Below are positions 3,602 to 20,574 of a DNA stretch of 32,000 bases, piece by piece. Source of the stretch: Desulfobulbus propionicus DSM 2032 (GTDB lineage: Bacteria; Desulfobacterota; Desulfobulbia; Desulfobulbales; Desulfobulbaceae); the NCBI RefSeq assembly GCF_000186885.1, contig NC_014972.1, positions 420,001 through 452,000 of the forward strand, written 5' to 3'. Position numbers and translations under genes: made by a program. How positions within the stretch are numbered: position 1 is the first letter of the stretch; the number at the start of each line of letters is the position of its first letter. The notes below the pieces were generated by a model. That model was not told the DNA's origin. It did not search any database and worked only from the letters and a program-made list of their open reading frames with translations.

Positions 3602-3605
3602 TGTT

Positions 3606-4287: not shown

Positions 4288-4317
4288 GGCCGTCTCTTTA
4301 TTAGAAGTGGTGAGGTT

Positions 4318-4391
4318 ATAAGTTTTCTTATTGATTGAAACCTTATAATAGGAAAACCTATTGGTCAACAAAAAAATATAAGATTTCTTAT
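4318..4391. promoter_or_regulatory. Divergent switch region with three operator-like palindromes
   Basis: The palindromes are ATAAG-TTTT-CTTAT (4318-4331), AATAGG-AAAA-CCTATT (4347-4362) and ATAAG-ATTT-CTTAT (4378-4391). The last overlaps the repressor ATG at 4390. Confidence 0.5.
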
Positions 4392-4797: not shown

Positions 4798-4867
4798 AAA
4801 GTGTTTAAAAGTTGTAAAATTTCAAGTTGTTACAACGTGGTGTTAAAGCAATATAATGAGGTAACTT

Positions 4868-5311
4868 GTGACCGTTTTGAATCCTAACGACAACTTTTCA
4901 GGCAAAAGAAGTGAAGATTTAACCGGGTACAAATTCACAAAATACGGCGAAAAAAATGTATCAAACGTCAAATGGACCTATGATTTTACCCCGTTAAAAA
5001 AATGGGCTTTATTCATCCTAAGCGCTTGTTTCGTTGGAGCCTTGGGAGCATTATTGATTGGACAAAGACAAAAGATTGAACAGCAAAAAGAAATAGCCAT
5101 CGAAGCGCAAGATGCGCGAAAACATTATCTCCAAAAGATACTTGAGGACGTCAAGCAACAAACCATAGCTGAAGAGCGCCGGAAAAGCATGGCAACCGAA
5201 AACACAGTCGTTGAACCAGCAAAACAACAGCAACCTCGAGGCAAGAAACTGTACAGCTGGGTTAACGAAAATGGTCAAACTGTTTATTCAAATAAGCCGA
5301 AACCAGAATGA
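4868..5311 (+). CDS. Membrane-anchored coiled-coil protein with a DUF4124-like C-terminus (147 aa)
   Basis: A GTG start is preceded by GAGGT. It has one TM segment (WALFILSACFVGALGALLIG), a charged helical region, and the C-terminal motif KLYSWVNENGQTVYSNKP. Confidence 0.5.
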   Translation: MTVLNPNDNFSGKRSEDLTGYKFTKYGEKNVSNVKWTYDFTPLKKWALFILSACFVGALGALLIGQRQKIEQQKEIAIEAQDARKHYLQKILEDVKQQTIAEERRKSMATENTVVEPAKQQQPRGKKLYSWVNENGQTVYSNKPKPE

Positions 5312-5322
5312 ACGTTACCGAA

Positions 5323-5604
5323 TCAGGCCGGTTCAAGCTCCAGGTGAACACGCCGACCTAAAGCCGTTGCAATGTTCACTAAAGCATCCAAGGAGAAACG
5401 AGAGACACGACCACGCAATAAATCATTGATACGGGGTTGAGTCACACCGCAATGCAAGGCGGCATCGGCCTGCTTCCATTCATTGGCTTTAATAATGGCT
5501 GCAATCTGGCGCATCAGTTCAGCCCTTGCCCGAAGATTGGCAGCCTGTTCCGGTGTGTCGGTTAATGCATCCCAAATATTGTTATAGGTTTCCATTTCGA
5601 TCAT
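5323..5604 (-). CDS. higA: HigA-type XRE-family antitoxin (93 aa)
   Basis: It carries an HTH (QADAALHCGVTQPRINDLLRG) and the SLDALVNIATALG tail typical of this antitoxin family. It overlaps the toxin stop by 4 nt. Confidence 0.7.
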   Translation of the reverse strand: MIEMETYNNIWDALTDTPEQAANLRARAELMRQIAAIIKANEWKQADAALHCGVTQPRINDLLRGRVSRFSLDALVNIATALGRRVHLELEPA

Positions 5605-5933
5605 TTGAACACCTTCATCAGTTCAGAGTATCGGAATTTAGCAAGGTCGATATCCTTTCTTGAAGTTGCTTGCGTTTTCTTCTGAAATGCGTGGAGCACA
5701 AACACCGCGTCAGCAAGCCTTGCAGTATAGATAATGCGGAAAGTTCCGGATTCATCCCAGATGCGAATTTCTTCTACTCCTTTGCCGATAGAAGGCATGG
5801 GCTTAAAATCATCTGGCTGTTCCCCTCGTTGCACCTTATCAAGCTGATAACCGGAATCCTGCCGGGCACCCTCCGGAAAGGAACGTAAGCACTTCAAAGA
5901 ATCCCCGAGAAATCGAATCACTTTCATAAACAA
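5601..5933 (-). CDS. higB: HigB / RelE-superfamily toxin (Gp49-like, 110 aa)
   Basis: The motifs GVEEIRIWDESGTFRIIYTARLADAVFVLHAFQKKTQ are typical of phage Gp49/HigB-like toxins. The toxin-first gene order matches HigBA. Confidence 0.7.
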   Translation of the reverse strand: MFMKVIRFLGDSLKCLRSFPEGARQDSGYQLDKVQRGEQPDDFKPMPSIGKGVEEIRIWDESGTFRIIYTARLADAVFVLHAFQKKTQATSRKDIDLAKFRYSELMKVFK

Positions 5934-6100
5934 ATTATATTCAATTGGATATAAAAAAACAAGCTTAAATGTGTCCCGAAAGCCTTGAAGCTGAAGGATT
6001 TTTGAAGGACATTTTCCCCCAAAAATAAGGAAAAGAAAAGAGCTGTGTGGAGAAAAATATAATAAAAATAGCTATATAGATCGGGAAAGCGTGCTGTTTT

Positions 6101-7814: not shown

Positions 7815-9704
7815 GTGCCCATGCCCACACTCATTGTTTGTCAGGATGCCCACGATTATCGGGTGATCGATTTTGTCGGCTCGGTCACCATCGGTCGCGA
7901 AAACGATAACGACCTTGTGCTGGCCTCACCCCAGGTTTCCCGGCACCATGCATCCGTCGCTCAGCGGGAAAACGGCGACTACATGCTGTTTGATCATGAA
8001 AGTACCAACGGTGTCTGGATGGAGCAGCGCCGGGTCAACGGTGTCCGTCTCGGCCACGGGGCAAGCTTTCGCATCACCAACTTTTCTTTTACCTTCCTTG
8101 ATGAACAGCACGATGACCGCCCTTCGAAAGTGTTTGCCTCGGAGGGCGAGAGCGGGCCGCCTGCACGGCAACGACCGCTGGATTCGGCCACTGTTCTTTT
8201 TAATCGGGGATCGGATTCGGCGGCCGAGGCGCCCGCCGTAGAACGGCCTGCTCCCTTGATGAATGAGGAAACGGTGGCGATGGTACCCCTTGCCAGCCTG
8301 TTTCTCGCCCTGCAGACCATTGACGAGGCCATCACCTTGGGCGAGCGGATTCTGGCTGGCGCCGTGCAGTTGACCGGAGCTGATCGCGGCTTTCTCGCCC
8401 TGCTCAACGAGAAGAACGAACTGTTATACACGGCGACCCACCGGTTCGATCCGCGCAAGGACAGTCTGGAGATCAGCCGGGAGGCGGTTCAACTGGTGAT
8501 GGAGCAATGCCGTTCGATCCGGATCGAAGAGGAGGGACAGGAACGACGCAAGGGCAAGGGCCGAGCCCGCTCGGTGCTCTGTGTGCCGCTGGTGCGCGAG
8601 GACAAGGCGTCCGGCTGCCTGTATCTCGATCACCCAAACGATGCTTTTTTCGACGTTGCGGCGCAGAGCCTTCTCGAAATTCTGGCCTTGCACGGTGCCG
8701 TCCTGCTCGACAATCTCAATAGCCGCCAACGGCTGTTTCGGGAGCGAGAATCCCTCAAATCCCGGCTTGCCTCCAAGGATGAAACCATTGTCAAGAGCGA
8801 GAAAATGGTCAAGCTCTATGAGGATATCCGCACCATTGCCGCCATCAATGTGCCGGTGTTCATCCAGGGCGAGGCCGGCAGCGGCAAGGAGCATGTGGCT
8901 GCGGCGCTGCATGCTTTTTCCCAGCGCAAGGGAGCGTATATCCCTCTGAACTGCTCGGCCATTCCCGAAGGCATTTTTGAAAGCGAGCTGTTCGGTTCAA
9001 AAAAAGGCGCCTTTCACGAGGCGATCGACAAGCCGGGCAAACTGGAATTGGCTGATGGCGGCACCCTGTTTCTCGATGAAGTGGCCGATATGTCCCTTGC
9101 CCTGCAGCCCAAGCTGCTGCGGTTTCTTGAAAACGGCGAGATCACCCGTCTGGGTGATACCCGCAGCCGCCGGTTGGATGTGCGGGTGGTGACCGCCACC
9201 AACCGTGATGTGGCCGCGATGATCCAGGAACATCAATTCCGCGACGACCTGTTCCAGCGGCTTTCCTGCTTTACCCTCAAGGTGCCGCCGTTGCGCGAGC
9301 GGCTGGAGGATATCGAGCCTCTGAGCCATTATTTCCTGGAGAAGTTCTCGGCCGAGTACAATTGGAAAACGCCCCGCCTGACCGAGAGTGCCCTGCAACG
9401 GCTCACCCAGTACCCGTGGCCCGGTAATGTCCGCCAGTTGCGCAACGTGCTGTTGCGCCTCGCCGTTCAGTCCCAGGGCAGAATGATCACCGAGCGTGAT
9501 ATACTGGCTCTCTCCGATGAATTCGGCAGCAAGGAGGAACCGGCACGGATCGAAGTCTTTCCCAGCCTGGAAGAGATGGAGAAGAACCACCTTCGGGCGG
9601 CCCTGGAGCGGGCGGACGGCAACATCTCCGATGCCGCGGCCTTGGTGGGAATCGCCCGTTCCACCTTTTACCAAAAAATGAAAAAGTACGAAATTTCAAT
9701 ATAA
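7815..9704 (+). CDS. FHA-GAF-AAA+ sigma-54-dependent transcriptional activator with a C-terminal Fis-type HTH (629 aa)
   Basis: The FHA domain shows GRENDNDLVLASPQVSRHHASV...STNGVW, and a GAF-like middle region follows. The AAA+ domain has Walker A GEAGSGKE, Walker B TLFLDEV and a GAFHEA loop in place of GAFTGA. The HTH is NISDAAALVGIARSTFYQKMKK. The start is a GTG at 7815, or an ATG at 7821. Confidence 0.9.
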   Translation: MPMPTLIVCQDAHDYRVIDFVGSVTIGRENDNDLVLASPQVSRHHASVAQRENGDYMLFDHESTNGVWMEQRRVNGVRLGHGASFRITNFSFTFLDEQHDDRPSKVFASEGESGPPARQRPLDSATVLFNRGSDSAAEAPAVERPAPLMNEETVAMVPLASLFLALQTIDEAITLGERILAGAVQLTGADRGFLALLNEKNELLYTATHRFDPRKDSLEISREAVQLVMEQCRSIRIEEEGQERRKGKGRARSVLCVPLVREDKASGCLYLDHPNDAFFDVAAQSLLEILALHGAVLLDNLNSRQRLFRERESLKSRLASKDETIVKSEKMVKLYEDIRTIAAINVPVFIQGEAGSGKEHVAAALHAFSQRKGAYIPLNCSAIPEGIFESELFGSKKGAFHEAIDKPGKLELADGGTLFLDEVADMSLALQPKLLRFLENGEITRLGDTRSRRLDVRVVTATNRDVAAMIQEHQFRDDLFQRLSCFTLKVPPLRERLEDIEPLSHYFLEKFSAEYNWKTPRLTESALQRLTQYPWPGNVRQLRNVLLRLAVQSQGRMITERDILALSDEFGSKEEPARIEVFPSLEEMEKNHLRAALERADGNISDAAALVGIARSTFYQKMKKYEISI

Positions 9705-9725
9705 TAAGAATTGAATCGCTTTGCT

Positions 9726-9774
9726 TGTAGGAAAATCGAACAGGCGAACACGCTGTCTGTCCGATTTTCCTACA
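9726..9774 (+). promoter_or_regulatory. Long inverted repeat: activator-gene terminator or enhancer (UAS) for the downstream sigma-54 promoter
   Basis: TGTAGGAAAATCG (9726-9738) and CGATTTTCCTACA (9762-9774) pair perfectly. The repeat is extendable to 19 bp with one mismatch, and each arm reads TGT-N11-ACA. It lies 22 nt after the activator stop and ~210-255 bp upstream of the -24/-12 element. Confidence 0.4.
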
Positions 9775-9836
9775 ATTTGCTCTTTGCCTGAAAATTCCCT
9801 TTTTTCAAGATGATCACTCTTTTTCTCCTCCGCGCT

Positions 9837-9851
9837 GTTCGATTTTCGAAC
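9837..9851 (+). promoter_or_regulatory. Palindrome GTTCGA-TTT-TCGAAC, candidate enhancer-binding site
   Basis: This perfect 6-3-6 palindrome lies ~135 bp upstream of the -24/-12 promoter. Confidence 0.3.
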
Positions 9852-9981
9852 ATTTGCGCGATCCCCCGCAAGGGAACCCCCGAGGGGGTGCCTCCGGTGG
9901 CCATCGCCGGTACAGCTGGCTTGGAAATGATGATGCCATATTTCAGTGTGTTGCGACTCGTTCGCGGCGCAAATCTGCACT

Positions 9982-9997
9982 TGGCACGCTCGTTGCT
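9982..9997 (+). promoter_or_regulatory. Sigma-54 (-24/-12) promoter TGGCACGCTCGTTGCT
   Basis: It matches TGGCACG-N4-TTGCW exactly, with GG at 9983-9984, GC at 9995-9996 and correct spacing. It lies ~75 nt upstream of the first operon ATG (10072) and directly downstream of a sigma-54 activator gene. Confidence 0.75.
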
Positions 9998-10071
9998 TTA
10001 GCTGTGGCAACCAGTTTTGCTGTCTGTCAGCATAAGAACGAACATCAAGCACCTATTTGAGGAGGTTCATC

Positions 10072-10920
10072 ATGAAAAAAACAGTTTTCACAGCCGCTGT
10101 TATCTTTGCTTTGTCCGCCGGAGTTGCCCATGCCGATCATCGTGATCGCGGCGACTCGACGTTGCTGGGTTCTTTCGGCAGCAAACATCGAGGCGGGGCG
10201 ATCCATCACAACACCTTTGCCGCGCAGCCCATCACCAACACCAATTCCAACGTCATCACCATCAATACCTCGGCAACCCAGACCGCCACCCAGACCGCAA
10301 GCGCCACTTCGCCGGTGACCCAGACAACAACTTCCACCTCCACCTCTGACTCCGGCAGCAACGCCACCGCCACCAGCAGCAACACAGACAGTTCCACCAC
10401 CACGGCTGGCACCGATACCTCAGCCTCCACCACCGATTCGACCACGGACAGCACCACGGATACCACGGCGTCGACCACCGACAGCACCGATACCGCCGCT
10501 GACAGCACGGCCGATACCGCGACCGATGCCACCGCCGATGCCACGACCACCAGCGAGCAGAACGACGACCAGGATGGTCTCCAGGCCGAGATCCGCAACG
10601 AAATCAAAGGAGTTGGCAATATCTCCAGCACCATCTCCGGTGGCAACAACAACTTGGCCAACGCCGCCTCCATCTCCGTAGGCGGCAGTGCTCAGAGCAC
10701 TGATTCCATCATCAACAAGGTCAGTTCCGCCGGCAACATCTCCAGTTCGATCAAAGGCGGCAACAACAACCGCGCCAATGCAGCGTCCATCTCCATGGGC
10801 GGCGGCATCGCGGTCAAAGGCCGGGTGATCAACGAGGTTGAGGGCGCCGGCGATATTTCCAGTTCCATCGAGGGCGGCAACAACAACCAGGCTAACGCCG
10901 GTTCCATCGCCATCAACTGA
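10072..10920 (+). CDS. Secreted repeat protein A: signal peptide, Thr/Ser/Asp-rich linker, three 39-aa GGNNNxANAxSI (curlin-like) repeats
   Basis: GAGGAGG lies 6 nt before the ATG at 10072 (the ORF track uses a TTG at 10057). The signal peptide ends AHA. The GGCAACAACAAC motif occurs at 10642, 10759 and 10876, exactly 117 nt apart. Confidence 0.7.
   Translation: MKKTVFTAAVIFALSAGVAHADHRDRGDSTLLGSFGSKHRGGAIHHNTFAAQPITNTNSNVITINTSATQTATQTASATSPVTQTTTSTSTSDSGSNATATSSNTDSSTTTAGTDTSASTTDSTTDSTTDTTASTTDSTDTAADSTADTATDATADATTTSEQNDDQDGLQAEIRNEIKGVGNISSTISGGNNNLANAASISVGGSAQSTDSIINKVSSAGNISSSIKGGNNNRANAASISMGGGIAVKGRVINEVEGAGDISSSIEGGNNNQANAGSIAIN
10267..10554 (+). repeat. Low-complexity Thr/Ser/Asp/Ala-coding tract inside protein A
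   Basis: I count 39 Thr and 20 Ser in 96 residues. The DNA is built from reiterated ACC/ACG/GAC/AGC/GAT units (for example ACCACCGATTCGACCACGGACAGCACCACGGATACCACG). Confidence 0.8.
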
Positions 10921-11009
10921 TGTGCTTCCTCCCTCCGTGTCGCGGTCCGCATGTGCTGCGGCACGGAGTATCCCCTATTGCAAATGTTATCCTTCTGCGG
11001 AGAACCATC

Positions 11010-11603
11010 ATGAAAGTCCTGCATATTCTTACCATCGGCGCCCTGCTGCTGGCACCGGCCCTCAGCCAGGCGGACATGCTCGGCCTGCGCGTCGAGAACC
11101 GGGTCAAGGGCGGCGAGTACAGCGCCCGAACCAAGGGCAACAACAACATCGCCAACGCGGCCTCGATCAACATGACCGGCAGCACGGCGCGCGAGGTCAA
11201 CAATCGGGTTCAGGCCGCCGGCGCGATCTCCGCCTCGGCCACCGGCAACAACAACACCGTCAACAGCGCTTCGGTGCAGATGCAGAACTCGACCGCCGGT
11301 AAAGTGTCCAATACGGTCAAGGTTGATTCCATCGGCAACACGGTGCGGGGCAACAACAACATCTCCAATATCGGTTCGGTGTCGATGCGCAATTCCGCGG
11401 CCGGCGTGGTGACTTCCGAAGTGACCGGAGGTCAGTTGAACGGCGTGATCGACGGCAACAACAACCGCCTCAATGTCGGGTCGGTGCAGATGACCGAGGC
11501 CCAGCGCGGTGAGGTAATGACCAAAACCGATCTCGGCAACGTCTCGGTGTCGATGTCCGGCAGCAATTCCAGCGTGGCCATCGATTCGGTGGTCGCCAAC
11601 TGA
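11010..11603 (+). CDS. Secreted repeat protein B: signal peptide plus five ~35-aa GNNNxxNxxSV (curlin-like) repeats (197 aa)
   Basis: The signal peptide is MKVLHILTIGALLLAPALSQA. GGCAACAACAAC occurs at 11136, 11244, 11349 and 11454 (spacing 108, 105 and 105 nt), followed by one degenerate terminal repeat (SGSNSSVAIDSV). The ORF-track start at 10920 is an upstream extension. Confidence 0.7.
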   Translation: MKVLHILTIGALLLAPALSQADMLGLRVENRVKGGEYSARTKGNNNIANAASINMTGSTAREVNNRVQAAGAISASATGNNNTVNSASVQMQNSTAGKVSNTVKVDSIGNTVRGNNNISNIGSVSMRNSAAGVVTSEVTGGQLNGVIDGNNNRLNVGSVQMTEAQRGEVMTKTDLGNVSVSMSGSNSSVAIDSVVAN

Positions 11604-11623
11604 CAGCGACGGAGGATCATTCC

Positions 11624-11947
11624 ATGCAAACGATCACCGCGACCCTGGTGCTGTCCCTGCTGCTGACGGGAATCTTCCGCGCGGACCCCGTCCGCGCCGA
11701 CGACCTCGATGACGGCATCACCATTGATGATTCGGCCTATTCGTACGGCAATATCAGCAGTTCGAGCCAAAATTTCTCCTATCTCGCCCAGCGGGCGCGG
11801 AGCAAGGCCGCATCGGGGTCCGGTGACGTGGTCCTGTCCGACAGCGGCGCGCTCAACAGCGTCATCCTCGATGCAGGGGCGCAGATCAATGGCGACATCA
11901 TCATCATCGATGATTCTTCGGGCGACAAGACCGTTATTTCCAATTAA
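11624..11947 (+). CDS. Small secreted hypothetical protein (107 aa)
   Basis: It has a GGAGGA RBS and the signal peptide MQTITATLVLSLLLTGIFRADPVRA. The mature part is Asp/Ser/Ile-rich. It sits where a curli accessory factor would, but I recognise no similarity. Confidence 0.55.
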   Translation: MQTITATLVLSLLLTGIFRADPVRADDLDDGITIDDSAYSYGNISSSSQNFSYLAQRARSKAASGSGDVVLSDSGALNSVILDAGAQINGDIIIIDDSSGDKTVISN

Positions 11948-11966
11948 TCCAGCGTGAGGGACGAGC

Positions 11967-13460
11967 ATGCCGTTTGTGACCATCAGACCCCGATCCCGGC
12001 GAGCGCCGGGCCTTTTGCTGTTGATGCTGCCGCTGGTTTTCCTGGGGCTGACCTCCTGCTCCTCGATTGACCCGCGCCAGGTGGATGTTGATCTGCCGTC
12101 GGACATGCCGGAGGTCAAGGAAACCAGCTTCGACAAGCCGCTGGCCGAATTGGGGCGGATGACCCAGATCTACGGCAAGCGGGCTTATATTCAGGGCAAG
12201 GATATCACCGACTTCACCGGCCTTTCCACCTATGGGTACGGTGAGATCCCGCGTGACATCACCGAGATGACCAAAAGCGCGCTCAACGCCATCGGCGGCA
12301 ACGTGGTCTACATCCCCTACAGTCCGGTGTTCATCAACAACCAGATGGTGACCGGTTATTCCAATTTCCAGGGCAAGCTGATTCCCGATGTCGTCCTCTC
12401 CGGCGGCATCACCGAATTTGACCGGGGCCTGGAAACCAGGGGCAGCAACACCGATTTCGGTGTGACCACCAAACCGTTCAACGTCAACGAATCCTGGGTG
12501 CCAGGCGATACCATATCCCTCGATTACAACCAGGAAGATCAGGATAGCCTGGCCCGGATCACCCTTGATTTCAACCTGCTCGATTTCCAGACCATGTCTG
12601 GCGTGGCCCGCATGCAGACGGTCAACACCATCAACGTCTACAAGGCGGTCAAGGAAAAAGAGCTCGGCTTTACCATCTTTGGCCCGACCTTCGGCCTCAA
12701 GGGCACGGTCAAGAAGGTGCAGGGCCGGCATGCGGCCATCCGTCTGCTGGTCCAGACCAGTGTGCTGCAGATCGTCGGCAAATACCTCTATCTGCCCTAC
12801 TGGAAGCTGATCCCCAACATGAAGCCCGATCCAGTGGTGCTCGACAAGATCCGTCAGGATTTCCGCAACCTGAGCCAAACCGACAAGGTCGGCGAAATGC
12901 AGACCTGTCTCTACCTCAAGGGGTACAATGTGCCAGTTACCGGCCAGCTCGATGCCCAGACCCAGTCCGCTCTGACCAGCTTCAAGCAGCAGTATGCAGT
13001 CCAGGGGGCGGGTGACGCCGAATTGTATGTCGCGCTGTGGAGTTCACTGGGTGACAACATGGAGCAGGTATCCTATCGCCGCGAACTGCTGGCCAGGGCC
13101 TTGGAGAATCCAAGCCAGCAGGCGGCGGTCGCCAAGGCGCCGGCGAAGAAGGAACCGGCCAAAGAGGTGGCCAACAGGGCGGCTGCACCTTCCGAGAAGG
13201 TGGCGACCCGCAAGGCGGCCGACAAATCCAGCGGGAAAAAGGATGTTCCGGCCCAGCGACGGGCCAGTTCCGGCCCGGCTGCCGTGGCCAGCACCGCGCC
13301 ATCCGAGATCAAGGCCGCAGGATCGGTCTCGAAAGAATCGACTCCTGTCAACCAGGACAAGGATCGCAACGACATCGCCCAGGTGTTGCGTAGTCAGCCG
13401 GTCCTGGGGAATAAAAATTCAGCGGAGGCAATGATCAATGAAAGGCGCATGGCCGAATAA
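11967..13460 (+). CDS. CsgG/HfaB-family outer-membrane lipoprotein fused to a peptidoglycan-binding-like domain and an Ala/Lys/Pro-rich tail (497 aa)
   Basis: The lipobox is LGLTSC. CsgG-like blocks are present (DITEMTKSALNAIGGNVVYIPY, DVVLSGGITEFDRGLE, ITLDFNLLDFQT, and AAIRLLVQTSVLQIVGKYL). A PG_binding_1-like segment follows (MQTCLYLKGYNVPVTGQLDAQTQSALTSFKQQY). Confidence 0.7.
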   Translation: MPFVTIRPRSRRAPGLLLLMLPLVFLGLTSCSSIDPRQVDVDLPSDMPEVKETSFDKPLAELGRMTQIYGKRAYIQGKDITDFTGLSTYGYGEIPRDITEMTKSALNAIGGNVVYIPYSPVFINNQMVTGYSNFQGKLIPDVVLSGGITEFDRGLETRGSNTDFGVTTKPFNVNESWVPGDTISLDYNQEDQDSLARITLDFNLLDFQTMSGVARMQTVNTINVYKAVKEKELGFTIFGPTFGLKGTVKKVQGRHAAIRLLVQTSVLQIVGKYLYLPYWKLIPNMKPDPVVLDKIRQDFRNLSQTDKVGEMQTCLYLKGYNVPVTGQLDAQTQSALTSFKQQYAVQGAGDAELYVALWSSLGDNMEQVSYRRELLARALENPSQQAAVAKAPAKKEPAKEVANRAAAPSEKVATRKAADKSSGKKDVPAQRRASSGPAAVASTAPSEIKAAGSVSKESTPVNQDKDRNDIAQVLRSQPVLGNKNSAEAMINERRMAE

Positions 13461-13758
13461 TTTCGGAGGCGGTTTGCTGGCGGGGGGGCTGGTGGTCCTG
13501 TTGGCCGGTCTGCTCATGGGAGCGGTTCATCACGATCCGCCTTCCCTGCCGGTGGCGGTGCTCGACCCGCAGGTGGAACGGCCCGTGCCCCTTGCCAGCA
13601 ATGGTCGTTATCAGATTGTCACCTGGCAGGGCGGCGGCGGATACGGGGCCTTTGTCCTCGACACCGCGACCGGCACCACCAAGGTCGCCTACAGCTCGAT
13701 CAAAGGACCGGGTGGCAAAAGCGTCAACAATATCGGCAAACCCTTTGCCCAGATGTAA
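13438..13758 (+). CDS. Small membrane-anchored hypothetical protein (106 aa)
   Basis: It has a GGAGG RBS and one N-terminal TM segment (GGLLAGGLVVLLAGLLMGAV). It overlaps the upstream gene by 23 nt. Confidence 0.5.
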   Translation: MKGAWPNNFGGGLLAGGLVVLLAGLLMGAVHHDPPSLPVAVLDPQVERPVPLASNGRYQIVTWQGGGGYGAFVLDTATGTTKVAYSSIKGPGGKSVNNIGKPFAQM

Positions 13759-13768
13759 GGAGTATGCA

Positions 13769-14950
13769 ATGCAGTGCAGTGATCGGACGGAGGAGTTGAA
13801 AATGAAGTGGTGGCAAAAGTTGCAACCCGTGGCTGCGGAGTTGATCATCCTGGCGCTAGTGCTGGCTGCTGTGCTGGCGGCCAACCTCGGCCATGCGGCC
13901 ACAGCCGGTGGCCCGGCGCAGGGGTATGGATTGAAGATCTTCCGCGTGGAGTCGGGACTGTATCCCTTTGTTCATGTCTACATGCGCACCTTTGACCAGG
14001 AAATGAATCCCCTGGTCAACCTCAACGTGCTCAACATCGGGGTGATGGTCGAGGGACGGGCCTACGATCCGAGAAAAAAACAGTATGTCATTCAACCGTT
14101 GCGCAACCGGGAGGAAGCGACCCGCTCCATCCTGGTGCTCGACACCAACAAGATGCTGAAGGGGCAGGATTTTGAAGCCATGATCCGGGCAGCGGCCCGG
14201 TTCATCGACGCCAAGCGGCCCCAGGATCAGGTGGCCCTGATCGCCCTGGACAACAGTGGCGAGGGATATACGGTCTTGTCCAATTTCGACCGCGAACCGG
14301 GCATCCTCGGTCGGCGGCTGGCCGATCTGCAGCCGCGCGGCGACAAGACCAGGCTCTACGACGGGGTGGCGGCCGCCATGCAGATGGCCGGTGGCGCGGT
14401 GGGCGGCGATTCCTCCAGCGAGGTGGAATACATTGTTTCGACCTCGATCATCGTGCTGGGGAGCGGCCGGGATGACGACAGCGCCATCAGCCGTTCCGAT
14501 CTGATGACCCGCATTTCCAGCCTGAAAATTCCGGTGCCGATCTATTCGTTGTGCTTTACCGGTCCCGAGGGCAAGGATCAGCGCAACCTGCAGGCCCTGT
14601 CGAAGAATTCCTTCGGCAAGTACTACTCCATTGGCGGCGCCTACGACACCATCACGCGCAATATCGAGGATATTCAAAACATCATGCAGAGCGACTACGT
14701 GCTCACCTTCCGGGCCTACATTCCGGTGGACGGCGGCAGGCACAATGTCAAGATCGGGGTCGAATATCCGACCGGCAGCGGCATCATGTACTATGACGCC
14801 TCCGTGTTCGAGGCCATCGAACCGCCGACCTTCCCCCGGATCATCGAGGCGCAGCAGAAGCTCGACAAGGCGATCCCCGCGCTCAAGGATGAGGAATTGT
14901 ATCTGAAAAATCCTTACGCTCCGGCGGCGGTACCGGGCGGGAAAAGCTGA
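13769..14950 (+). CDS. Exported or membrane-anchored von Willebrand factor A (VWA) domain protein
   Basis: The VWA pattern is SILVLDTNKMLKG...VALIALDN...GDKTRLYDG...IIVLGSGRDDDS, and the MIDAS position reads DTNKM rather than DxSxS. The ATG at 13769 has an AAGGAG RBS. The alternative ATG at 13802 (MKWWQK...) also has a GGAGGAG RBS. The ORF-track start at 13592 overlaps the previous gene. Confidence 0.7.
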   Translation: MQCSDRTEELKMKWWQKLQPVAAELIILALVLAAVLAANLGHAATAGGPAQGYGLKIFRVESGLYPFVHVYMRTFDQEMNPLVNLNVLNIGVMVEGRAYDPRKKQYVIQPLRNREEATRSILVLDTNKMLKGQDFEAMIRAAARFIDAKRPQDQVALIALDNSGEGYTVLSNFDREPGILGRRLADLQPRGDKTRLYDGVAAAMQMAGGAVGGDSSSEVEYIVSTSIIVLGSGRDDDSAISRSDLMTRISSLKIPVPIYSLCFTGPEGKDQRNLQALSKNSFGKYYSIGGAYDTITRNIEDIQNIMQSDYVLTFRAYIPVDGGRHNVKIGVEYPTGSGIMYYDASVFEAIEPPTFPRIIEAQQKLDKAIPALKDEELYLKNPYAPAAVPGGKS

Positions 14951-15051
14951 TCCTGTCCTTCGGCGTGGATTGATAGCGCAACACGGTTCTTGTGCAGCCT
15001 CCGACCGCCCTCCCGAGCACCCGGGGGCTGCACTTTTATTCTCCTCATCGC

Positions 15052-17667
15052 ATGGCATCCTCCAGGCATCATTCTTCCCCCAGCGAACATACCGCTTATT
15101 TGGCAGCCAGGGCTGCCGGATGCGCCCATCGGGAGTATTGTCTCACCTCGGCGAGCACAACCATCGGACGCGATGGCACCCTCTGCGACATTGTCCTTAC
15201 CGGCGCCACTGTCTCGCGCCGCCACGCCTGCTTATCTCGAACGGGTGAAACCGACTATCAGCTCCACGATCTCCAGTCCACCAACGGAGTATTTGTCAAC
15301 GGCGAGCGGATTAAGGGTTCGCGCTTTCTGCGTGATGGCGACCTGATCGGGCTTGGCACCGCCCTGCCGCATCTGCGTTTCCAATATCACAGCATCCGGG
15401 AACCGCATCACCTGATTCTGCCACCCCAGGCCCAGTGGCTGATCGGCCGGGCTCCCCACTGCGATCTCTCCCTGCCCTTCGAGCCAACGGTCAGCTCCCA
15501 CCATGCCACCCTCAGTAGCCAAGATGGCACACTGCGAATCGCCGACGCCCACAGCCTCAATGGAACCTGGGTCAACGGCTCGAACCGGTTCAAGGCGTTC
15601 CTTGCCCCCGACGACACCGTGGTCATCGGGTCCACGCATTTCCAGTTCCGTCTCCGGGAGGACGGTTCGCTGTCCGTGCTCCAACGGGAATATGGCCAGT
15701 CGGTCAAACTGGAATGTGTCGGTCTCCACCGCACCGCCCCGCGTGCGAACGGCACGGCGAGAATGCTGCTCAACGACATCACTCTGAGCATTGAACCCGG
15801 CGAATTTGTAGGTATTCTCGGCCCTTCGGGCGCGGGCAAGACTACCCTGCTCACCGCCCTCAATGGTTTCAGCCGTCCGGACCGGGGGTGGGTGCTGTGC
15901 AACGAGACGCCCATGGACAGCGCCTCGGCCCTGTTCCGCAACACCATCGGCTATGTGCCCCAGGATGATATTCTCCACCGGGAGTTGAGCGTGCAGGCCA
16001 GCCTTGAATATGTCGCCCGCCTGCGGTTGTCGCCGGATCTTTCTCCACGCCAACGTGCCGAGATCATCGACAACACGATCGAAACCCTTGGATTGCACCC
16101 GGTGCGGCACCTGCCGATCGACCAACTGAGCGGCGGCCAGCGAAAACGGGTGTCCATCGGCGCGGAGCTGCTGGTTCGCCCAAGCCTGCTCTTCCTCGAC
16201 GAGCCCACCTCAGGACTGGATCCCAGCACCGAGGACCGGCTGATGCATCACTTCCGGGACATGGCCGACCACGGCACCACGGTGATCATTACCACCCACC
16301 TGCTCGACAACCTCGACCTGCTGGACAAGGTGGTGATTCTCGCCCAGGGACGGGTGGTCTTCTTCGGCGCCCCCTCCGAGGCCCTAACCTTCTTCGGCAC
16401 GGAGCAGCAGCCCCTTGCCCGGGCAACCGGTATCTTCGCCGTGCTCACCGAGGCGGACACCCCGTCCTCGGCAGCGGCATCCTCCTGGAAAGGGCAGGAG
16501 GAGATCGCCACCCATCATGCCGCCCGTTTCCTCGCCTCTCCCTGGTTTCGGCAACATATCGAACAGCGGCTTTCGCCGGCAGCCCACGCGTGCATGGCCA
16601 TGGATACCGCCTCCCCCTCTCGGCCGCTAGCACGGCTGCGCACCCTGTGGGCCGATCGTTCACGGCGCGGCCATGGTTTTTCTCCTGGCGAATGGCTGCG
16701 TTCCTGGTGCATTCTTTCGCGTCGCCACCTGCACATCCGTGCCAGTGCCGGCAAACGGCTGCTGCTGTTCCTGCTCATTCCCATGGCGCTGGCCCTGGTG
16801 ACCCTGTCGCAGCATATCCCTGGCGTGGCCAGCGACGCGGTAGTGGCGGAACGGAGGGCCGAAATAGAGGCCCTGGTTGCCCCAGGCGGCGCCCTGATGG
16901 ACACGCAGCTCAAGCTCCTCCTGTCTCCGGCCGGCATTGGCGAAACCCGTTCGGGCGCTGAATTGCTCCACGCCCTGCGTTACGAAGGCATCGCGCATTT
17001 GCCGGTTCCCATGAGCGTCTTGCTGATGATCGTCATGACCGCCGTGTTTTCCGGCACCCTGATCGCCTGTCAGGAAATTTCCACCGAGCGGTCGATTTAC
17101 CTCCGGGAGCGGATGTCCCATCTGCGCATCCTGCCGTACCTTGGGGCGAAAATGCCTTTTTGCCTGGGGCTTGCCGCCCTGCAGTGCCTGATCTTTCTCT
17201 CCCTGTGCTGGCTCAACCCCGCCCTGCGCCAGGCGGATTTCTTTCCGGTCTGGCTGACCATGGTCGCCGTGGCCTGGAGTTCGGTGGCCATTGGGCTGAC
17301 CCTGAGCGCTGTTGATCCGACCGGCGGCCGGTTGTCGGTGATGCTGACCGTGGCCGTGGTCCTGCCGCAGTTGCTGCTTTCCGGCGGCCTCGGTCCTGAT
17401 TTTTACGGGCGCATGCACGGCCCGCTGCGCCTGGCGGCGGATCTGCTGCCGGCCCGCTGGGGGCTGGAGATGGTGTGCACCGCGCTGTTCGATACACTCA
17501 AGGGCGAGGGCGCGCGATGGATTCCAGCCTTTGTCCGTGAGGTGATAGGTTTTGACTTCGGCCAGGGCGTCTATTATAGTGGCATGATCTTTCTGTTGGC
17601 TCAATTCCTGCTTTGGGTGCTGTTCTGCACAGGATTCCTGACTTACCGCGATAGACGATCATGTTGA
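15052..17667 (+). CDS. FHA-FHA-ABC ATPase-ABC-2 permease fusion (Rv1747-type exporter)
   Basis: It has two FHA domains (TIGRDGTLCDIVL...SRRHACL...STNGVFVNG and LIGRAPHCDLSL...SSHHATL...SLNGTWVNG). The ATPase shows Walker A GPSGAGKTT, signature LSGGQRKRVSIG and Walker B LLFLDEPTSGLD. The C-terminus is multi-TM. The start is uncertain, either the ATG at 15052 or the GTG at 14992. Confidence 0.85.
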   Translation: MASSRHHSSPSEHTAYLAARAAGCAHREYCLTSASTTIGRDGTLCDIVLTGATVSRRHACLSRTGETDYQLHDLQSTNGVFVNGERIKGSRFLRDGDLIGLGTALPHLRFQYHSIREPHHLILPPQAQWLIGRAPHCDLSLPFEPTVSSHHATLSSQDGTLRIADAHSLNGTWVNGSNRFKAFLAPDDTVVIGSTHFQFRLREDGSLSVLQREYGQSVKLECVGLHRTAPRANGTARMLLNDITLSIEPGEFVGILGPSGAGKTTLLTALNGFSRPDRGWVLCNETPMDSASALFRNTIGYVPQDDILHRELSVQASLEYVARLRLSPDLSPRQRAEIIDNTIETLGLHPVRHLPIDQLSGGQRKRVSIGAELLVRPSLLFLDEPTSGLDPSTEDRLMHHFRDMADHGTTVIITTHLLDNLDLLDKVVILAQGRVVFFGAPSEALTFFGTEQQPLARATGIFAVLTEADTPSSAAASSWKGQEEIATHHAARFLASPWFRQHIEQRLSPAAHACMAMDTASPSRPLARLRTLWADRSRRGHGFSPGEWLRSWCILSRRHLHIRASAGKRLLLFLLIPMALALVTLSQHIPGVASDAVVAERRAEIEALVAPGGALMDTQLKLLLSPAGIGETRSGAELLHALRYEGIAHLPVPMSVLLMIVMTAVFSGTLIACQEISTERSIYLRERMSHLRILPYLGAKMPFCLGLAALQCLIFLSLCWLNPALRQADFFPVWLTMVAVAWSSVAIGLTLSAVDPTGGRLSVMLTVAVVLPQLLLSGGLGPDFYGRMHGPLRLAADLLPARWGLEMVCTALFDTLKGEGARWIPAFVREVIGFDFGQGVYYSGMIFLLAQFLLWVLFCTGFLTYRDRRSC

Positions 17668-19085
17668 ACGACGACATCCAGACGCTGATCGACCCCAGCG
17701 TTGTCCAGCCGCTCAAGGCCGTGGCGGTCAGCGACAGTGGCGTGCTGATCGCCGACCGGTATCGGATGCTGCGACCGCTTGGCGAAGGAGGCATGGGCAA
17801 TGTCTACTTGGCCGAGGATCTGGTGTTGGCGCGGCGCGTGGCGATCAAGACCATTCGGCCGGAGTTGAGCGGCAACGAAGAGATCCGCTCGCGCATCAAG
17901 CGTGAATGCCGCATGCATGCGGCCATTGGCGTCCATCCCCATATCATCACCCTCTACGACTCGGTCGAGGAAAACGGGCATATCTACCTGGTGATGGAGT
18001 ATTTTGCCGGCGAGACCCTGGCCGCTCGGCTTGCCTCGCAAACTGGCGAGCAAGGCCTCCCGCTGGACCAGACGCTCGATATCGTCCGCCAGGTACTCCG
18101 CGCCTTGGCCTGCATCCATGACCAGGGGATCGTCCATCGCGACATCAAGACCGCCAACATCCTCCTCCAGCAGGGGACCGACGGCAATCTGCGCGTCAAG
18201 CTCGCCGATTTCGGCATTGCCCGGGCGGGGATGGCGGCGCAAACCGTGACCCGCCTGACCGCTCTGGATGTTCAAGGGCCGGGGACGCCGGTGTACATGG
18301 CGCCGGAGCGGATCGACCCGCAGACCTTCGGCGGGGTCTGTCCCGCTTCGGACCTTTACGCGGTGGGCATCATCCTCTTTGAACTGCTCACCGGACACCC
18401 CCCCTTCACCGGCTCCATGACCGAGATTTTTTCCGGCCATCTGGTCCAGCCGCCGTGCCTGGACCGCCTGCCAGCCACGCTTCCCCCCACGGTACTGGCG
18501 GTTCTTCGCACCGCCTTGGCCAAACAGCCATCGGAGCGGTTTCAGCGCGCCCAGAGCTTTCTTGAAACCTTGGAGGGGGGGCACCCGAGCTTGGACCATG
18601 CCTTCATTCCGCCCCGGGCACCCTCCCACCCGCCGGTTCACGCTCAGACGCTCTTGGCCGTGTCGGCGGAACCGACGGCGCAAAGCGAGTCCGTTACCCT
18701 ACTGAACCCGTCGTGCGGGGCTGGCCGTGGCTCAGATCCTTCGCGGCGATGGCGGCAAGGGTTGATGTATGCGGCACTGGCCTGCGTGCTGGTGCTTGTC
18801 AGCGGATGGTATCTGTACGATCATTTTGTCACCCCATCCTTGACCGCCTCTGCGCCCGTCAACAGCCAAGAAATCACCACGACGGGATCCGAAAAGGACA
18901 CGGTTGCCGTCCCTGCCAGCGTTCCGGACGACATCGAGGCGGCCAAAACCGTCACCGCCTTGCAGACGTTGGAAAAGGTCCGGCAGCAAAAAACCATCGA
19001 ATCCATGGCCGCCGCCGAGCGCCCCGGGGGCAATCCGGCAAACGAGTGGCAGGTGATCGAAGACCGCTCGCGAAGAATACGCTGA
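17661..19085 (+). CDS. Hanks-type Ser/Thr protein kinase with one TM segment and a short extracytoplasmic tail (474 aa)
   Basis: Kinase motifs are GEGGMGNVY, VAIK, HRDIKTANILL, DFGIAR and GTPVYMAPE. The TM segment is LMYAALACVLVLVSGWYLY. It overlaps the ABC gene by 7 nt. Confidence 0.9.
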   Translation: MLNDDIQTLIDPSVVQPLKAVAVSDSGVLIADRYRMLRPLGEGGMGNVYLAEDLVLARRVAIKTIRPELSGNEEIRSRIKRECRMHAAIGVHPHIITLYDSVEENGHIYLVMEYFAGETLAARLASQTGEQGLPLDQTLDIVRQVLRALACIHDQGIVHRDIKTANILLQQGTDGNLRVKLADFGIARAGMAAQTVTRLTALDVQGPGTPVYMAPERIDPQTFGGVCPASDLYAVGIILFELLTGHPPFTGSMTEIFSGHLVQPPCLDRLPATLPPTVLAVLRTALAKQPSERFQRAQSFLETLEGGHPSLDHAFIPPRAPSHPPVHAQTLLAVSAEPTAQSESVTLLNPSCGAGRGSDPSRRWRQGLMYAALACVLVLVSGWYLYDHFVTPSLTASAPVNSQEITTTGSEKDTVAVPASVPDDIEAAKTVTALQTLEKVRQQKTIESMAAAERPGGNPANEWQVIEDRSRRIR

Positions 19086-19099
19086 CCCACCCTTTGCTC

Positions 19100-19657
19100 A
19101 TGTCAGGTAAATTGGTCCTCGTTGTTCTTGCTGTCGGCAGCTTGCTTCTTGGCGGCTGCGCGCCCCTGGTGTTCACCGCCGGGGCCGGAACCGGATACGT
19201 GGCGACGCAGGATAAACCGCGGAACAAGATCGAGGCCTTTTTTGACGATCTGGCCAGATCAATCCGGCAAACGACCCGCAAGATCACCGGGGCTCCCCCC
19301 AGCCGGCGGAAAAGCACCGCCAAGCCGACGTCCACATTGCAGCTGGCCATTCAAAAAGCCACTCTCTCCCCGGCCAAGGTCCGCACCGGCGATCAAATTA
19401 CCCTGACCCTGCGCTACAGCATTGCCGGTGCGCCGAAAAAAGGGATCCAGGTTCGAGAGAAAAGTTCCTTGTCCAAGGACGGCAAGACGTTGAGTCTCTT
19501 GAAGGACGAATCCTCGCAACGGGAAAACGGGGTGTGGGAAAATACCTTGTCTTTCGCGGTCCCCCAATCGGCTAAACCGGGCAGCTACACTGTGACCATG
19601 CGGATCAGCGCCCAAGGCCTGAACCGGAACGTCCGAAAGACCTTTACCGTCCAGTGA
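19100..19657 (+). CDS. Lipoprotein with a beta-sandwich-like C-terminal domain (185 aa)
   Basis: The lipobox is in MSGKLVLVVLAVGSLLLGGC. The ORF-track start at 18713 is an Arg-rich extension overlapping the kinase gene. No clear RBS is present. Confidence 0.55.
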   Translation: MSGKLVLVVLAVGSLLLGGCAPLVFTAGAGTGYVATQDKPRNKIEAFFDDLARSIRQTTRKITGAPPSRRKSTAKPTSTLQLAIQKATLSPAKVRTGDQITLTLRYSIAGAPKKGIQVREKSSLSKDGKTLSLLKDESSQRENGVWENTLSFAVPQSAKPGSYTVTMRISAQGLNRNVRKTFTVQ

Positions 19658-19713
19658 GGATCATGCGGGTGTTCCGGTTGCGCATCTCCAGTCCTGGCGA
19701 ACGGAGCTGAACC

Positions 19714-20514
19714 ATGGAGCTCCTTGAGGGGCATTGCCGCATGGGCGGTTTCCAGGTCGTCTATGCCGGGGCAACCGATCCGGGGCGAGTGCGTCGCTGC
19801 AATGAAGACAATCTGCTGATCTATCCCGAAGCCGGCGTCTTTGCCGTGGCCGACGGGCTGGGTGGGTTGGATGCGGGAGATGTTGCCAGCAGCACGGCGC
19901 TCGCGCATCTGCGAGAGCTTGTCCCGACCCCTTTCGCCGGCAACAGGTTTTTTGCCTTGTTCAACGACAAACACCCATTGCGGCAACTTGAAGCGGTGGT
20001 GGCCGCGGTCAATCGCCGAACCTATGAGCATCGAATGACCCTGGGCAAGAACATGGCCACCACCTTGGCCATGGTGCAGCTGCGAGGCGACAAGGTCGTG
20101 CTTGCCCACGTCGGTGACAGCCGCGTCTATCGCTGGCGCGACAATGCATTGCACTGTCTCACCAGCGACCATTCCTTGGTCAATGAACTGGTGCGGAAAG
20201 GGGCCTTGACTGCTTCCCAGGCCAGACAGTCCTCCCAGCGCCACGTCATCACCCGCGCGGTCGGCGCGGAACCGACCGTCATGCCCACCTTGCAACAACA
20301 GCCGCTGGCGGTAGGCGACATCCTGCTGCTGTGCACCGACGGGTTGACCAGTATGCTGTCGGACAGGGACATCGGTCAATGCCTTGGTAACGCGGCCACC
20401 ACCATCGGCGGCAGCGTGGCGCAACTCATCACCTTGGCCAACCAAGCTGGTGGGCATGACAACATCACCGTGGTGGGCGTGATCCTGCTGCCGATAGAAG
20501 AGAAGTCGGATTGA
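19714..20514 (+). CDS. PP2C-family Ser/Thr phosphatase (266 aa)
   Basis: Motifs are RRCNEDN, FAVADGLGG, AHVGDSRVY, LLLCTDGL and GGHDNITVV. Confidence 0.9.
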   Translation: MELLEGHCRMGGFQVVYAGATDPGRVRRCNEDNLLIYPEAGVFAVADGLGGLDAGDVASSTALAHLRELVPTPFAGNRFFALFNDKHPLRQLEAVVAAVNRRTYEHRMTLGKNMATTLAMVQLRGDKVVLAHVGDSRVYRWRDNALHCLTSDHSLVNELVRKGALTASQARQSSQRHVITRAVGAEPTVMPTLQQQPLAVGDILLLCTDGLTSMLSDRDIGQCLGNAATTIGGSVAQLITLANQAGGHDNITVVGVILLPIEEKSD

Positions 20515-20542
20515 TTTGTCGGCTTGTGCGCGAACGGAAAAG

Positions 20543-20574
20543 AAAAAAGGCGTTCCAATGGAACGCCTTTTTTT
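20543..20574. terminator. Bidirectional rho-independent terminator between the convergent PP2C and MFS genes
   Basis: The structure is AAAAAA-GGCGTTCC-AAT-GGAACGCC-TTTTTTT, a perfect 8-bp stem flanked by A and T runs. Confidence 0.85.

Follow-up and report, generated by a model that had tools for sequence, protein, structure and literature searches.

In this paper we report a gene cluster in a 32,000-nt window of Desulfobulbus propionicus DSM 2032 (NC_014972.1, positions 420,001 to 452,000), in which a sigma-54 activator gene is followed by ten genes, g1 to g10 (Table 1), and which we read as a sigma-54 unit joining a surface-structure module (module A) to a threonine-phosphorylation relay (module B); we regard this reading as moderately probable. 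Positions below are those of the window unless another locus is named. Module A (g1-g5) encodes two secreted Asn-rich repeat proteins, a lipoprotein that is a predicted remote relative of the curli pore CsgG, and two small proteins, and module B consists of the activator and g6-g10, i.e., a VWA protein, an ATP-binding cassette (ABC) transporter with two FHA domains, a Hanks-type kinase, a second lipoprotein and a PP2C phosphatase. Judged by gene neighborhoods, the cluster is the junction of two separately conserved modules. An earlier note made from the DNA sequence of the locus (the original prediction), which joined a curli-like secretion module to a phosphorylation circuit, overlooked this junction as well as the signaling precedents of the locus, namely PknF/Rv1747, the TagQRST relay and the Myxococcus FHA activators. 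As far as homology goes, the system is strongly conserved, its function is proposed, and the curli framing is half right.

The evidence for two modules comes from a tblastn comparison of all window proteins with 80 genome loci encoding g4 relatives. The full set of eleven genes is collinear in ~26 Desulfobulbus/Desulfobulbaceae loci, down to 40-60% identity, indicating that the genes are co-conserved, as the original prediction expected of related genomes. Some 50 loci, from Desulfobacterales, Desulfuromonadales, Geomonas, Nitrospirota and other groups, have the fibre module alone (repeat proteins, g3, g4 and g5); these stand-alone fibre loci lack VWA, ABC, kinase and PP2C genes, and most of them lack a sigma-54 promoter too. 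The signaling block is likewise found alone, in loci L082 and L083, where VWA, FHA-FHA-ABC, kinase, lipoprotein and PP2C genes, led by the g6 orthologue, occur without fibre genes and are directly preceded by an orthologous FHA-sigma54 activator (45% identity), the palindrome described below and TGGCAG-N5-TTGCT. All related loci with the block, the stand-alone block included, keep the g7/g8 pair.

The two modules also meet in other arrangements. In L081, L084 and L085, the VWA/FHA-FHA-ABC/kinase block sits next to another group of genes, which encode a pair of secreted repeat proteins, a small protein with DDLDDE, a g4 homologue at 29% identity, a lipoprotein resembling g9 and one more VWA protein. 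A one-off fusion in Desulfobulbaceae was considered as the origin of the cluster and rejected because a g4 only 29% identical is again linked to the block in these three loci. In L051, an FHA-sigma54 activator, the palindrome and the promoter precede repeat proteins, g3, g4 and g5, and the ABC transporter is replaced, after the fibre genes, by a protein (L051 11701-13386) with two FHA domains, a transmembrane (TM) segment and a long helical-repeat region (tetratricopeptide repeat [TPR]-like, by eye); FHA-FHA looks like a phosphothreonine (pThr) reader that is anchored in the membrane and portable. Very divergent g4 relatives (~25% identity) still stand behind Asn-rich repeat proteins, with other regulators, e.g., an extracytoplasmic function (ECF) sigma factor. 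On this comparative evidence, the repeat proteins, the small protein and the CsgG-like lipoprotein make up the constant core, regulation is modular, and the FHA/pThr block has been recruited repeatedly.

An open reading frame (ORF) scan places ten ORFs, all on the + strand, at 10072-20514 behind the activator gene (7815-9704), with spacing from -23 nt (g4 and g5 overlapping at 13438-13460) up to 41-101 nt (g6/g7, according to which g7 start is taken). The promoter TGGCACgctcgTTGCT ends 75 nt 5' of the g1 ATG and is the single match in the window, the chance expectation of an exact match being 0.05 per window. TGGCAY-N5-TTGCT is kept at the equivalent place, ~280 nt past the activator gene and directly before the first repeat gene, in every Desulfobulbaceae locus spanning the region, with the five spacer bases varying; the -24 GG and -12 GC are correctly spaced 5' of g1, as predicted for a sigma-54 promoter. 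At the other end, between g10 and a convergent major facilitator superfamily (MFS) gene, lies a perfect 15-bp hairpin with A and U runs on either side, whose fold in a 76-nt context reaches -30.2 kcal/mol (z = -4.3). Please note that the sigma-70 and terminator consensus scans did not rise above chance overall (promoters, 5 versus 4.3 expected; terminators, 19 versus 13.7), and that from the terminator scan the 20542-20574 hairpin alone was used. The anatomy of promoter, upstream sites and terminator is well beyond chance. The original prediction had placed ten + strand ORFs between a consensus promoter and a strong terminator, as a single sigma-54 unit adjacent to its activator; the ORF, promoter and fold scans agree with this layout, the conserved -24/-12 element and a palindromic site strengthen it, and one sigma-54 transcription unit of g1-g10 is the best explanation of the predicted signals.

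The activator gene had been described as encoding an FHA-GAF-sigma54 protein, and Pfam bears this out with matches to FHA (2.8e-16), GAF_2 (6e-11), Sigma54_activat (2.8e-57), HTH_8 (6.6e-15) and AAA_lid_14. An orthologue lies upstream in all full-cluster loci, and the FHA domain carries the pThr-binding residues GR..SRHH..TNG. Two elements stand between the activator gene and the promoter. The proximal one, a perfect palindrome ~146 bp before the -24 element, has the form TGTYCG-N5-CGRACA. This motif has a single occurrence in the window, against an expectation of 0.25 even when 1 mismatch is tolerated, and recurs exactly, at the equivalent position, in ~23 Desulfobulbaceae loci, L082/L083 and L051. 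The distal one, ~210-255 bp upstream, is conserved in an alignment of 11 intergenic regions, with TGTCCG and ACA invariant, and its two 17-mers are mutually reverse-complementary (16/17) with one perfect TGTYCG/CGRACA half-site each. The proximal palindrome is a probable binding site of the activator, and the combination of an AAA+ domain with conserved palindromes 146 and ~210-255 bp upstream is that of a dedicated enhancer-binding protein with predicted binding there. Those Desulfobulbaceae loci that are more divergent have another exact copy of the palindrome within the cluster, 5' of the g2 or g4 homologue, which suggests internal activator-dependent promoters in those loci; in the window, the motif is located solely upstream.

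The assignment of g4 was made by fold and by profile. Foldseek with the g4 model returned CsgG (4uv2/4uv3) as the top nine matches (E 3e-5 and up, prob 1.0, TM-scores 0.38-0.49), with CT253, FlgT and PelC ranking after CsgG. Profile A4, built from the most divergent members of the g4 family, aligned with E. coli CsgG in hhalign at 95.5% (E 1.5e-8, 170 columns), and Pfam CsgG was matched by 5 of 27 divergent g4 relatives, with others carrying DUF4384 or PG_binding_1. Because of these three results, we assign g4 (lipobox LTSC), by model and sequence comparison, to the true remote relatives of CsgG, as a superfamily lipoprotein outside the Pfam CsgG family. The protein itself does not match PF03783 even at E <= 10, CsgG was absent from the matches when PDB sequences were searched with the single sequence or with a close-family profile, the close-family profile gave a marginal hhalign result against CsgG, and an exhaustive profile search delimits the g4 family as a compact set of 732 clusters. 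The CsgG-like lipoprotein of the original prediction is thus retained as a remote superfamily member (Foldseek; hhalign 95.5%) and given up as a Pfam CsgG match. In CsgG, two TM hairpins per subunit make up the beta-barrel of an oligomeric pore; pore formation by g4 is putative.

It is conceivable, if unlikely, that g4 is instead a non-pore, peptidoglycan-bound scaffold in the periplasm or at the outer membrane (a ring of the PelC, FlgT or LPP20 type), that the repeat structure is built within the envelope or against the outer membrane's inner face, and that the relay monitors envelope state. Such an arrangement would agree with the g4 fold matches, which include lipoproteins that are not pores (PelC, FlgT and CT253), with the PG_binding_1-like segment, with the poor modeling of the putative hairpin region, with a weakly LPP20-like protein encoded in stand-alone fibre modules, and with the sensing of envelope damage by the T6SS (type VI secretion system) relay. 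However, CsgG is the best match of g4, ahead of PelC and FlgT, the profile alignment spans the segments flanking both CsgG hairpin insertions, the second g4 insertion (KELGFTIFGPTFGLKGTVKK) alternates polar and non-polar residues (by eye), and g1 has a long Thr/Ser-rich spacer typical of surface proteins.

The repeat proteins define the other half of module A. A hidden Markov model (HMM) of the repeat family, whose units recur every 35-39 aa with GKVTNKVDVGNISNVAIGNNNTANMGSV as their core, counts 445 such units across 100 proteins from the loci that were fetched. The AlphaFold2 model of g2 is all-beta (predicted local distance difference test score [pLDDT] 84; predicted TM-score [pTM] 0.77), and g2 is confidently predicted to be a beta-solenoid. 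No significant PDB neighbor of this model was found by Foldseek (FapC, E 0.019; CsgA fibril, E 1.3), g2 had no match among PDB sequences, and a word-indexed homologue search with g2 returned 5 relatives only. Neither g1 and g2 nor any of four distant repeat proteins matched Curlin_rpt at E <= 10, and hhalign against CsgA and CsgB aligned the signal peptides alone. By sequence comparison, g1 and g2 form their own Asn-rich 35-39-aa repeat family and are not curlins. The original prediction had taken them for curli-like subunits and had proposed Pfam searches for Curlin_rpt and CsgG as a check; the Pfam, hhalign and fold searches found g1/g2 unrelated to CsgA/CsgB, and neither the repeat proteins nor the lipoprotein gave a match in that check, even at E <= 10. 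It had also noted that CsgD, CsgE and CsgF are not recognizable at the locus, and here Pfam, and hhalign for CsgE and CsgF, are in agreement with it.

The small proteins g3 and g5 have no family match in Pfam or NCBIfam. Among the 80 loci, g3 has 64 homologues, always just 5' of a g4 homologue, and g5 has 54, located 3' of g4 homologues. Family profiles of g2, g3 and g5 against E. coli CsgB, CsgC, CsgE and CsgF gave hhalign probabilities <= 2.5%, on signal peptides only. That the locus is a true but divergent curli (type VIII) system, with g1/g2 as CsgA/CsgB-type amyloid subunits, g4 as the CsgG channel and a novel regulation added, is a reading whose membership claims are, by sequence, largely refuted, and we consider it very improbable. 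It would explain why a remote CsgG homologue has secreted Asn/Gly-rich repeat proteins encoded beside it, and the best, non-significant, fold match of g2 is a functional amyloid, FapC. It is at odds with the lack of a Curlin_rpt match in about six repeat proteins at E <= 10, with the alignment of signal peptides only to CsgA/CsgB, with a repeat of 35-39 aa and ~four strands versus ~22 aa and two strands in CsgA, with the missing CsgC/E/F relatives, with the separateness of the 732-cluster g4 family, and with the survey of Dueholm 2012 (PMC3521004), which reports one deltaproteobacterial curli system only, in Desulfovibrionales. Apart from this question, residues ~55-185 of g1, between the signal peptide and the three repeats, are almost exclusively Thr, Ser, Asp and Ala; this spacer looks like a flexible or glycosylated stalk, and its length differs among orthologues, going by the shifting g1 match positions.

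In module B, Pfam/NCBIfam, lipobox and motif searches returned every part that had been named before, i.e., the VWA protein, the FHA-FHA-ABC protein, the Hanks kinase, the lipoprotein and the PP2C phosphatase. In total, the locus has three FHA domains, each retaining its pThr-binding residues, together with a single kinase and a single phosphatase whose catalytic motifs are intact; the count is the one originally given. Pfam matches of g7 are FHA x2 (4.5e-34), ABC_tran (1.1e-30) and ABC2_membrane (4.2e-12); both FHA domains carry GR..SxxH..NG, the Walker A/B, LSGGQ, DEP and H motifs and six TM segments are present, and the closest solved relatives in the PDB are ABCA/ABCG exporters. The homologue alignments of g7 begin at residue 26-31, and its true start is possibly the ATG at 15052. 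The g8 start overlaps the g7 stop by 7 nt, the kinase motifs VAIK, HRD, DFG and APE are intact, and g10 has the metal-binding Asp motifs. The N-terminal anchor of g6 should put its VWA domain in the periplasm, and g6 matches an NCBI protein of Desulfobulbus propionicus at 100% identity. Weak Ig_VWA7/CopC-type matches were found in g9, and g9-like genes adjoin the kinase gene or a g4-like gene in L081, L082 and L084.

The presence of g7 raises the question of whether this transporter itself exports the fibre proteins, gated by phosphorylation. The shared operon, the co-conservation with the fibre genes in Desulfobulbaceae and the regulation of Rv1747 by phosphorylation are in line with such a role, and we nevertheless consider it quite unlikely because g1, g2 and g3 carry classical Sec signal peptides, because g7 is an ABC2 half-transporter of the ABCG-ABCA type, and because each module exists independently, i.e., the transporter block without fibre genes and fibre modules without the transporter; in L051, moreover, FHA-FHA is fused to the TM-helical-repeat (TPR-like, by eye) protein instead. 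Transporters of the ABCG/ABCA type are known for handling lipids, glycans or small molecules, not folded proteins. The original prediction had the pThr state set by the kinase/phosphatase pair read at two levels, transcription and export of an extracellular fibre or adhesin. That one kinase/phosphatase pair serves FHA readers at two levels is supported by the finding that the FHA activator, the palindrome and the promoter are confined to loci with FHA/kinase partners; the ABC exporter as the fibre export step is the part without support, given the Sec signals, the ABCG/ABCA type and the block without fibre genes.

A VWA protein, a Ser/Thr kinase and a PP2C phosphatase are also the composition of the TerY-P triad, and we therefore weighed the idea that these genes of module B (with the ABC gene) are a TerY-P-type anti-phage/conflict system adjacent to surface genes by chance, which we judge to be extremely improbable. 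The kinase and the ABC ATPase do match generic defence-library models, and an inovirus-like element lies upstream in the window; however, the kinase matches are generic Hanks-domain ones, g6, g4 and g9 match no PADLOC model (g6, none at E <= 1e-3), the g6 VWA domain is predicted to be periplasmic, and the block is co-conserved and, by prediction, co-transcribed with the fibre genes, with one dedicated activator for both. We rejected the defence reading after PADLOC gave no TerY-type match for the VWA protein g6.

Under the proposal of a surface-structure module under relay control, module A would build the structure. The g1 and g2 proteins would cross the inner membrane via Sec, their repeats would fold or polymerise as beta-solenoids, and they would cross, or anchor at, the outer membrane aided by the peptidoglycan-tethered lipoprotein g4, with the acidic secreted g3 and the membrane-anchored periplasmic g5 as likely accessory factors. 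Module B would be an envelope-spanning Thr-phosphorylation relay, in which the kinase g8 and the PP2C phosphatase g10 would set the pThr state and the input would probably come via the periplasmic VWA protein g6 and the lipoprotein g9. One pThr reader would be the activator FHA domain, the activator binding TGTYCG-N5-CGRACA sites and opening the sigma-54 promoter; the circuit would be autoregulatory since kinase, phosphatase and readers lie within the regulated operon. The other reader would be g7, the FHA-FHA-ABC transporter, under a regulation like that of Rv1747 by PknF, and g7 would be likelier to export a non-protein envelope or matrix component, or to transduce a signal like TagTS, than to export fibre proteins. 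What the sequences show is the gene content, the domains and their intact motifs, the promoter with its sites, the synteny, and modules that are separable yet repeatedly found together; secretion through g4, fibre formation, the kinase-substrate pairs, the input signal and the ABC substrate are the steps that we infer. More tentatively, and with doubt outweighing confidence, the locus may belong to an undescribed CsgG-dependent (type VIII-like) branch that builds fibres from 35-39-aa Asn-ladder beta-solenoids across Desulfobacterota/Nitrospirota and that is coupled, in Desulfobulbaceae and at least one other lineage, to a Thr-phosphorylation checkpoint (VWA, lipoprotein, FHA-ABC, kinase, PP2C); the checkpoint would report the assembly or envelope state to the FHA sigma-54 activator, giving a self-reinforcing, reversible control of the fibre.

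Several points weigh against the proposal. The AlphaFold model of g4 is moderate (pLDDT 62, with the TM-scores to CsgG given above), insertions are modeled at both CsgG-hairpin positions with the first (156-192) at pLDDT < 50, and the fold class of g4 includes the non-channel lipoproteins PelC, FlgT and CT253. The word fibre comes from the repeat architecture alone, since g2 lacks a significant structural neighbor, and the window does not have the ~130-aa and ~250-aa accessory proteins typical of most stand-alone fibre modules. The MIDAS motif of g6 is degenerate (LDTNKM, near residue 113; DTSITM in the L084 homologue), and its VWA domain may not bind metal or ligand classically. If the kinase is made only from the promoter that it controls, basal expression must be assumed. 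Literature searches returned no transcript, proteome or phenotype data for the locus and no Desulfobulbus expression data. The sigma54-contact loop of the activator (residues ~397-411) reads GAFHEA, not the canonical GAFTGA. The form GA[FY]H[END]A is kept in 24 of 24 activator orthologues, the L082 protein having GAFQDA and the unrelated L049 activator GSFTGA, so that activators without the conserved Thr-Gly form a whole, apparently functional clade; such a loop, found together with a target promoter that is well conserved, is of interest for the way in which activators make contact with sigma-54.

Table 1. Genes and sites of the cluster, with related sites in other loci. Positions are those of the 32,000-nt window except where a locus is named.
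Feature	Description	Position	Strand	Basis
Activator	FHA-GAF-sigma54 AAA+-HTH_8 enhancer-binding protein	7815-9704	+	Pfam
Distal upstream element	17-mer pair, 9726-9742 / 9758-9774	9726-9774	.	Intergenic alignment
Proximal palindrome	Putative activator site, TGTTCGATTTTCGAACA (TGTYCG-N5-CGRACA)	9836-9852	.	Intergenic alignment and motif scan
Sigma-54 promoter (predicted)	-24/-12, TGGCAC-N5-TTGCT (TGGCACgctcgTTGCT)	9982-9997	+	Exact consensus
g1	Sec-signal protein; ~130-aa Thr/Ser/Asp-rich spacer; three 39-aa GGNNNxANAASI repeats	10072-10920	+	Translation, repeat register
g2	Sec-signal protein; five ~35-aa GNNN repeats	11010-11603	+	Translation, AlphaFold2 model
g3	Small secreted acidic protein (DDLDDGI..., C-terminal GDIIIIDDSSGDKTVISN)	11624-11947	+	Homologues
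g4	Lipoprotein; CsgG-superfamily core ~35-290 (predicted); PG_binding_1-like segment ~306-343; disordered Ala/Pro/Lys-rich tail	11967-13460	+	Fold and profile
g5	Small protein; one N-terminal TM segment; periplasmic Gly-rich beta region (RYQIVTW...FVLDTATG)	13438-13758	+	Hydropathy
g6	VWA protein; N-terminal signal/anchor	13802-14950	+	VWA_2 3e-7
g7	FHA-FHA-ABC ATPase-ABC2 permease half-transporter	14992-17667	+	Pfam
g8	Hanks-type Ser/Thr kinase; one TM segment (367-385); short periplasmic tail	17661-19085	+	Pkinase 4.4e-51
g9	Lipoprotein (LLLGGC); C-terminal Ig-like domain	19100-19657	+	Lipobox, hydropathy
g10	Cytoplasmic PP2C Ser/Thr phosphatase	19714-20514	+	PP2C_2 6e-12; NCBIfam Stp1_PP2C 2.3e-64
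Intrinsic terminator	Bidirectional, A6-GGCGTTCC-ATT-GGAACGCC-T6	20542-20574	both	Hairpin scan and fold
Internal palindrome copies	In divergent Desulfobulbaceae loci	L019 9819-9835; L020 5737-5753; L022 1805-1821; L023 1039-1055; L024 9889-9905; L025 8872-8888		Exact motif

The flanks of the cluster are unrelated to it, with a CxxCxxCC protein upstream and the convergent MFS transporter, UvdE, Pta and EamA downstream. Farther upstream (71-~6000) there are a Zot-like ORF (PF05707, E 2e-7; 1865-2713, - strand), a 468-aa ORF that fits no family (71-1477, - strand) and, at 3300-5950, a series of small ORFs, which together look like an integrated filamentous-phage (inovirus-type) element by their sequences. 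An Rfam scan of the window found no family. At 17552-17580, within the 3' end of g7 and ~80 nt ahead of the kinase gene, a sigma-70-like TTGACT-17-TATAGT match (10/12) could be a source of basal kinase/phosphatase expression for the autoregulatory circuit, the scan as a whole being no better than chance.

Stand-alone fibre modules usually encode two extra secreted proteins between the g4 and g5 homologues (L031 11316-12444, L046 11294-12034 and equivalents), one of ~130 aa ('AGNxxMVE...') and one of ~250 aa ('AGNKRIMTIRAAKV...'), the latter weakly LPP20-like (22.9 bits versus a cutoff of 25.9); DUF2807 and HtrA-like genes are often next, and all of these are missing from the window. Very divergent g4-family lipoproteins, some with a C-terminal DUF4384, are encoded beside caspase-like Peptidase_C14 genes in L087 (233-6119) and L089 (5633-7549), and in L087 also beside an ECF sigma/anti-sigma pair, apparently a different regulatory and enzymatic setting for the same core.

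Nearly all functional surface fibres known to us to be secreted via CsgG-type pores are curli, for the most part from Proteobacteria and Bacteroidota, and the locus points to a second substrate class for the CsgG pore superfamily in anaerobic sulfate and metal reducers. What would be new is a substrate class and an accessory set for a CsgG-superfamily lipoprotein, tied to a PknF/Rv1747-like and TagQRST-like relay under an FHA sigma-54 activator. The original prediction did not recognize the combination as a described system, and our literature searches likewise returned no described system that combines CsgG-like, FHA, kinase and sigma-54 parts; each part belongs to a known kind and has precedents. 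The locus is a compact, linked example in which Ser/Thr phosphorylation would be read by FHA domains at a transcription factor and at a membrane transporter, its defined cis-elements make the circuit experimentally tractable, and the stand-alone signaling block (L082) and the stand-alone fibre module are natural controls. How surface-structure modules gain control circuits is seen in the modular exchange of one regulator for another (sigma-54/FHA, ECF sigma, FHA-TPR).

Compared with the curli system of E. coli, the locus is alike in having a CsgG-superfamily lipoprotein beside Sec-exported Asn/Gly-rich repeat proteins, which are predicted beta-solenoids, and in a minimal module without an ATPase. 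It differs in that g4 is outside Pfam CsgG and has a peptidoglycan-binding-like segment and a long disordered tail, that the 35-39-aa repeats are unrelated to curlin, that g3 and g5 stand in place of CsgB/C/E/F, and that control would be by sigma-54, FHA and pThr, not CsgD. This type of locus is absent from the curli survey of Dueholm 2012 (PMC3521004).

The signaling part has three counterparts. In M. tuberculosis, PknF phosphorylates and positively regulates the FHA-FHA-ABC exporter Rv1747, which is encoded in the same operon (PMC3138270). The architecture of g7 (two N-terminal FHA domains, a nucleotide-binding domain and an ABC-2 permease) and its place in one operon with the Hanks kinase g8 are, by sequence, those of the Rv1747 type, and by analogy we propose that g8 phosphorylates g7 and that the FHA domains bind the resulting pThr. 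The inter-FHA linker of Rv1747 is, in the account of PMC8339232, non-structured and has the phospho-acceptor threonines T152/T210, whereas the FHA1-FHA2 linker of g7 is short, ~25 aa. Unlike the mycobacterial pair, g7 and g8 are embedded with a VWA protein, a lipoprotein, a PP2C phosphatase and an FHA transcription factor, in a Gram-negative host.

The H1-T6SS of P. aeruginosa uses the TagQ lipoprotein, TagR, the TagTS ABC-like complex, PpkA, Fha1 and PppA as an envelope-sensing relay (PMC7817224). The part types are the same as at the locus (lipoprotein, periplasmic protein, ABC-like complex, Hanks kinase, FHA reader and PP2C), and that relay switches on a surface machine, the T6SS, by post-translational assembly. 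PpkA has a periplasmic VWA domain, whereas here the VWA domain is a separate protein and FHA is fused to the ABC protein. The outputs at the locus also differ, being a transcription factor and the ABC protein itself. No T6SS core gene (TssA-M, Hcp, VgrG) was matched among the window ORFs, and the likeness to this pathway is one of part types only. The third counterpart is found in Myxococcus xanthus, where an FHA domain takes the place of the receiver domain at the N-terminus of sigma-54 activators, implying Ser/Thr kinase control (Jelsbak et al. 2005, as cited in PMC12288465). The activator clade of the window differs from these in adding a GAF domain and the GA[FY]H[END]A loop, and the window activator is encoded in genetic linkage with the kinase, the phosphatase and the target promoter presumed to be its own.

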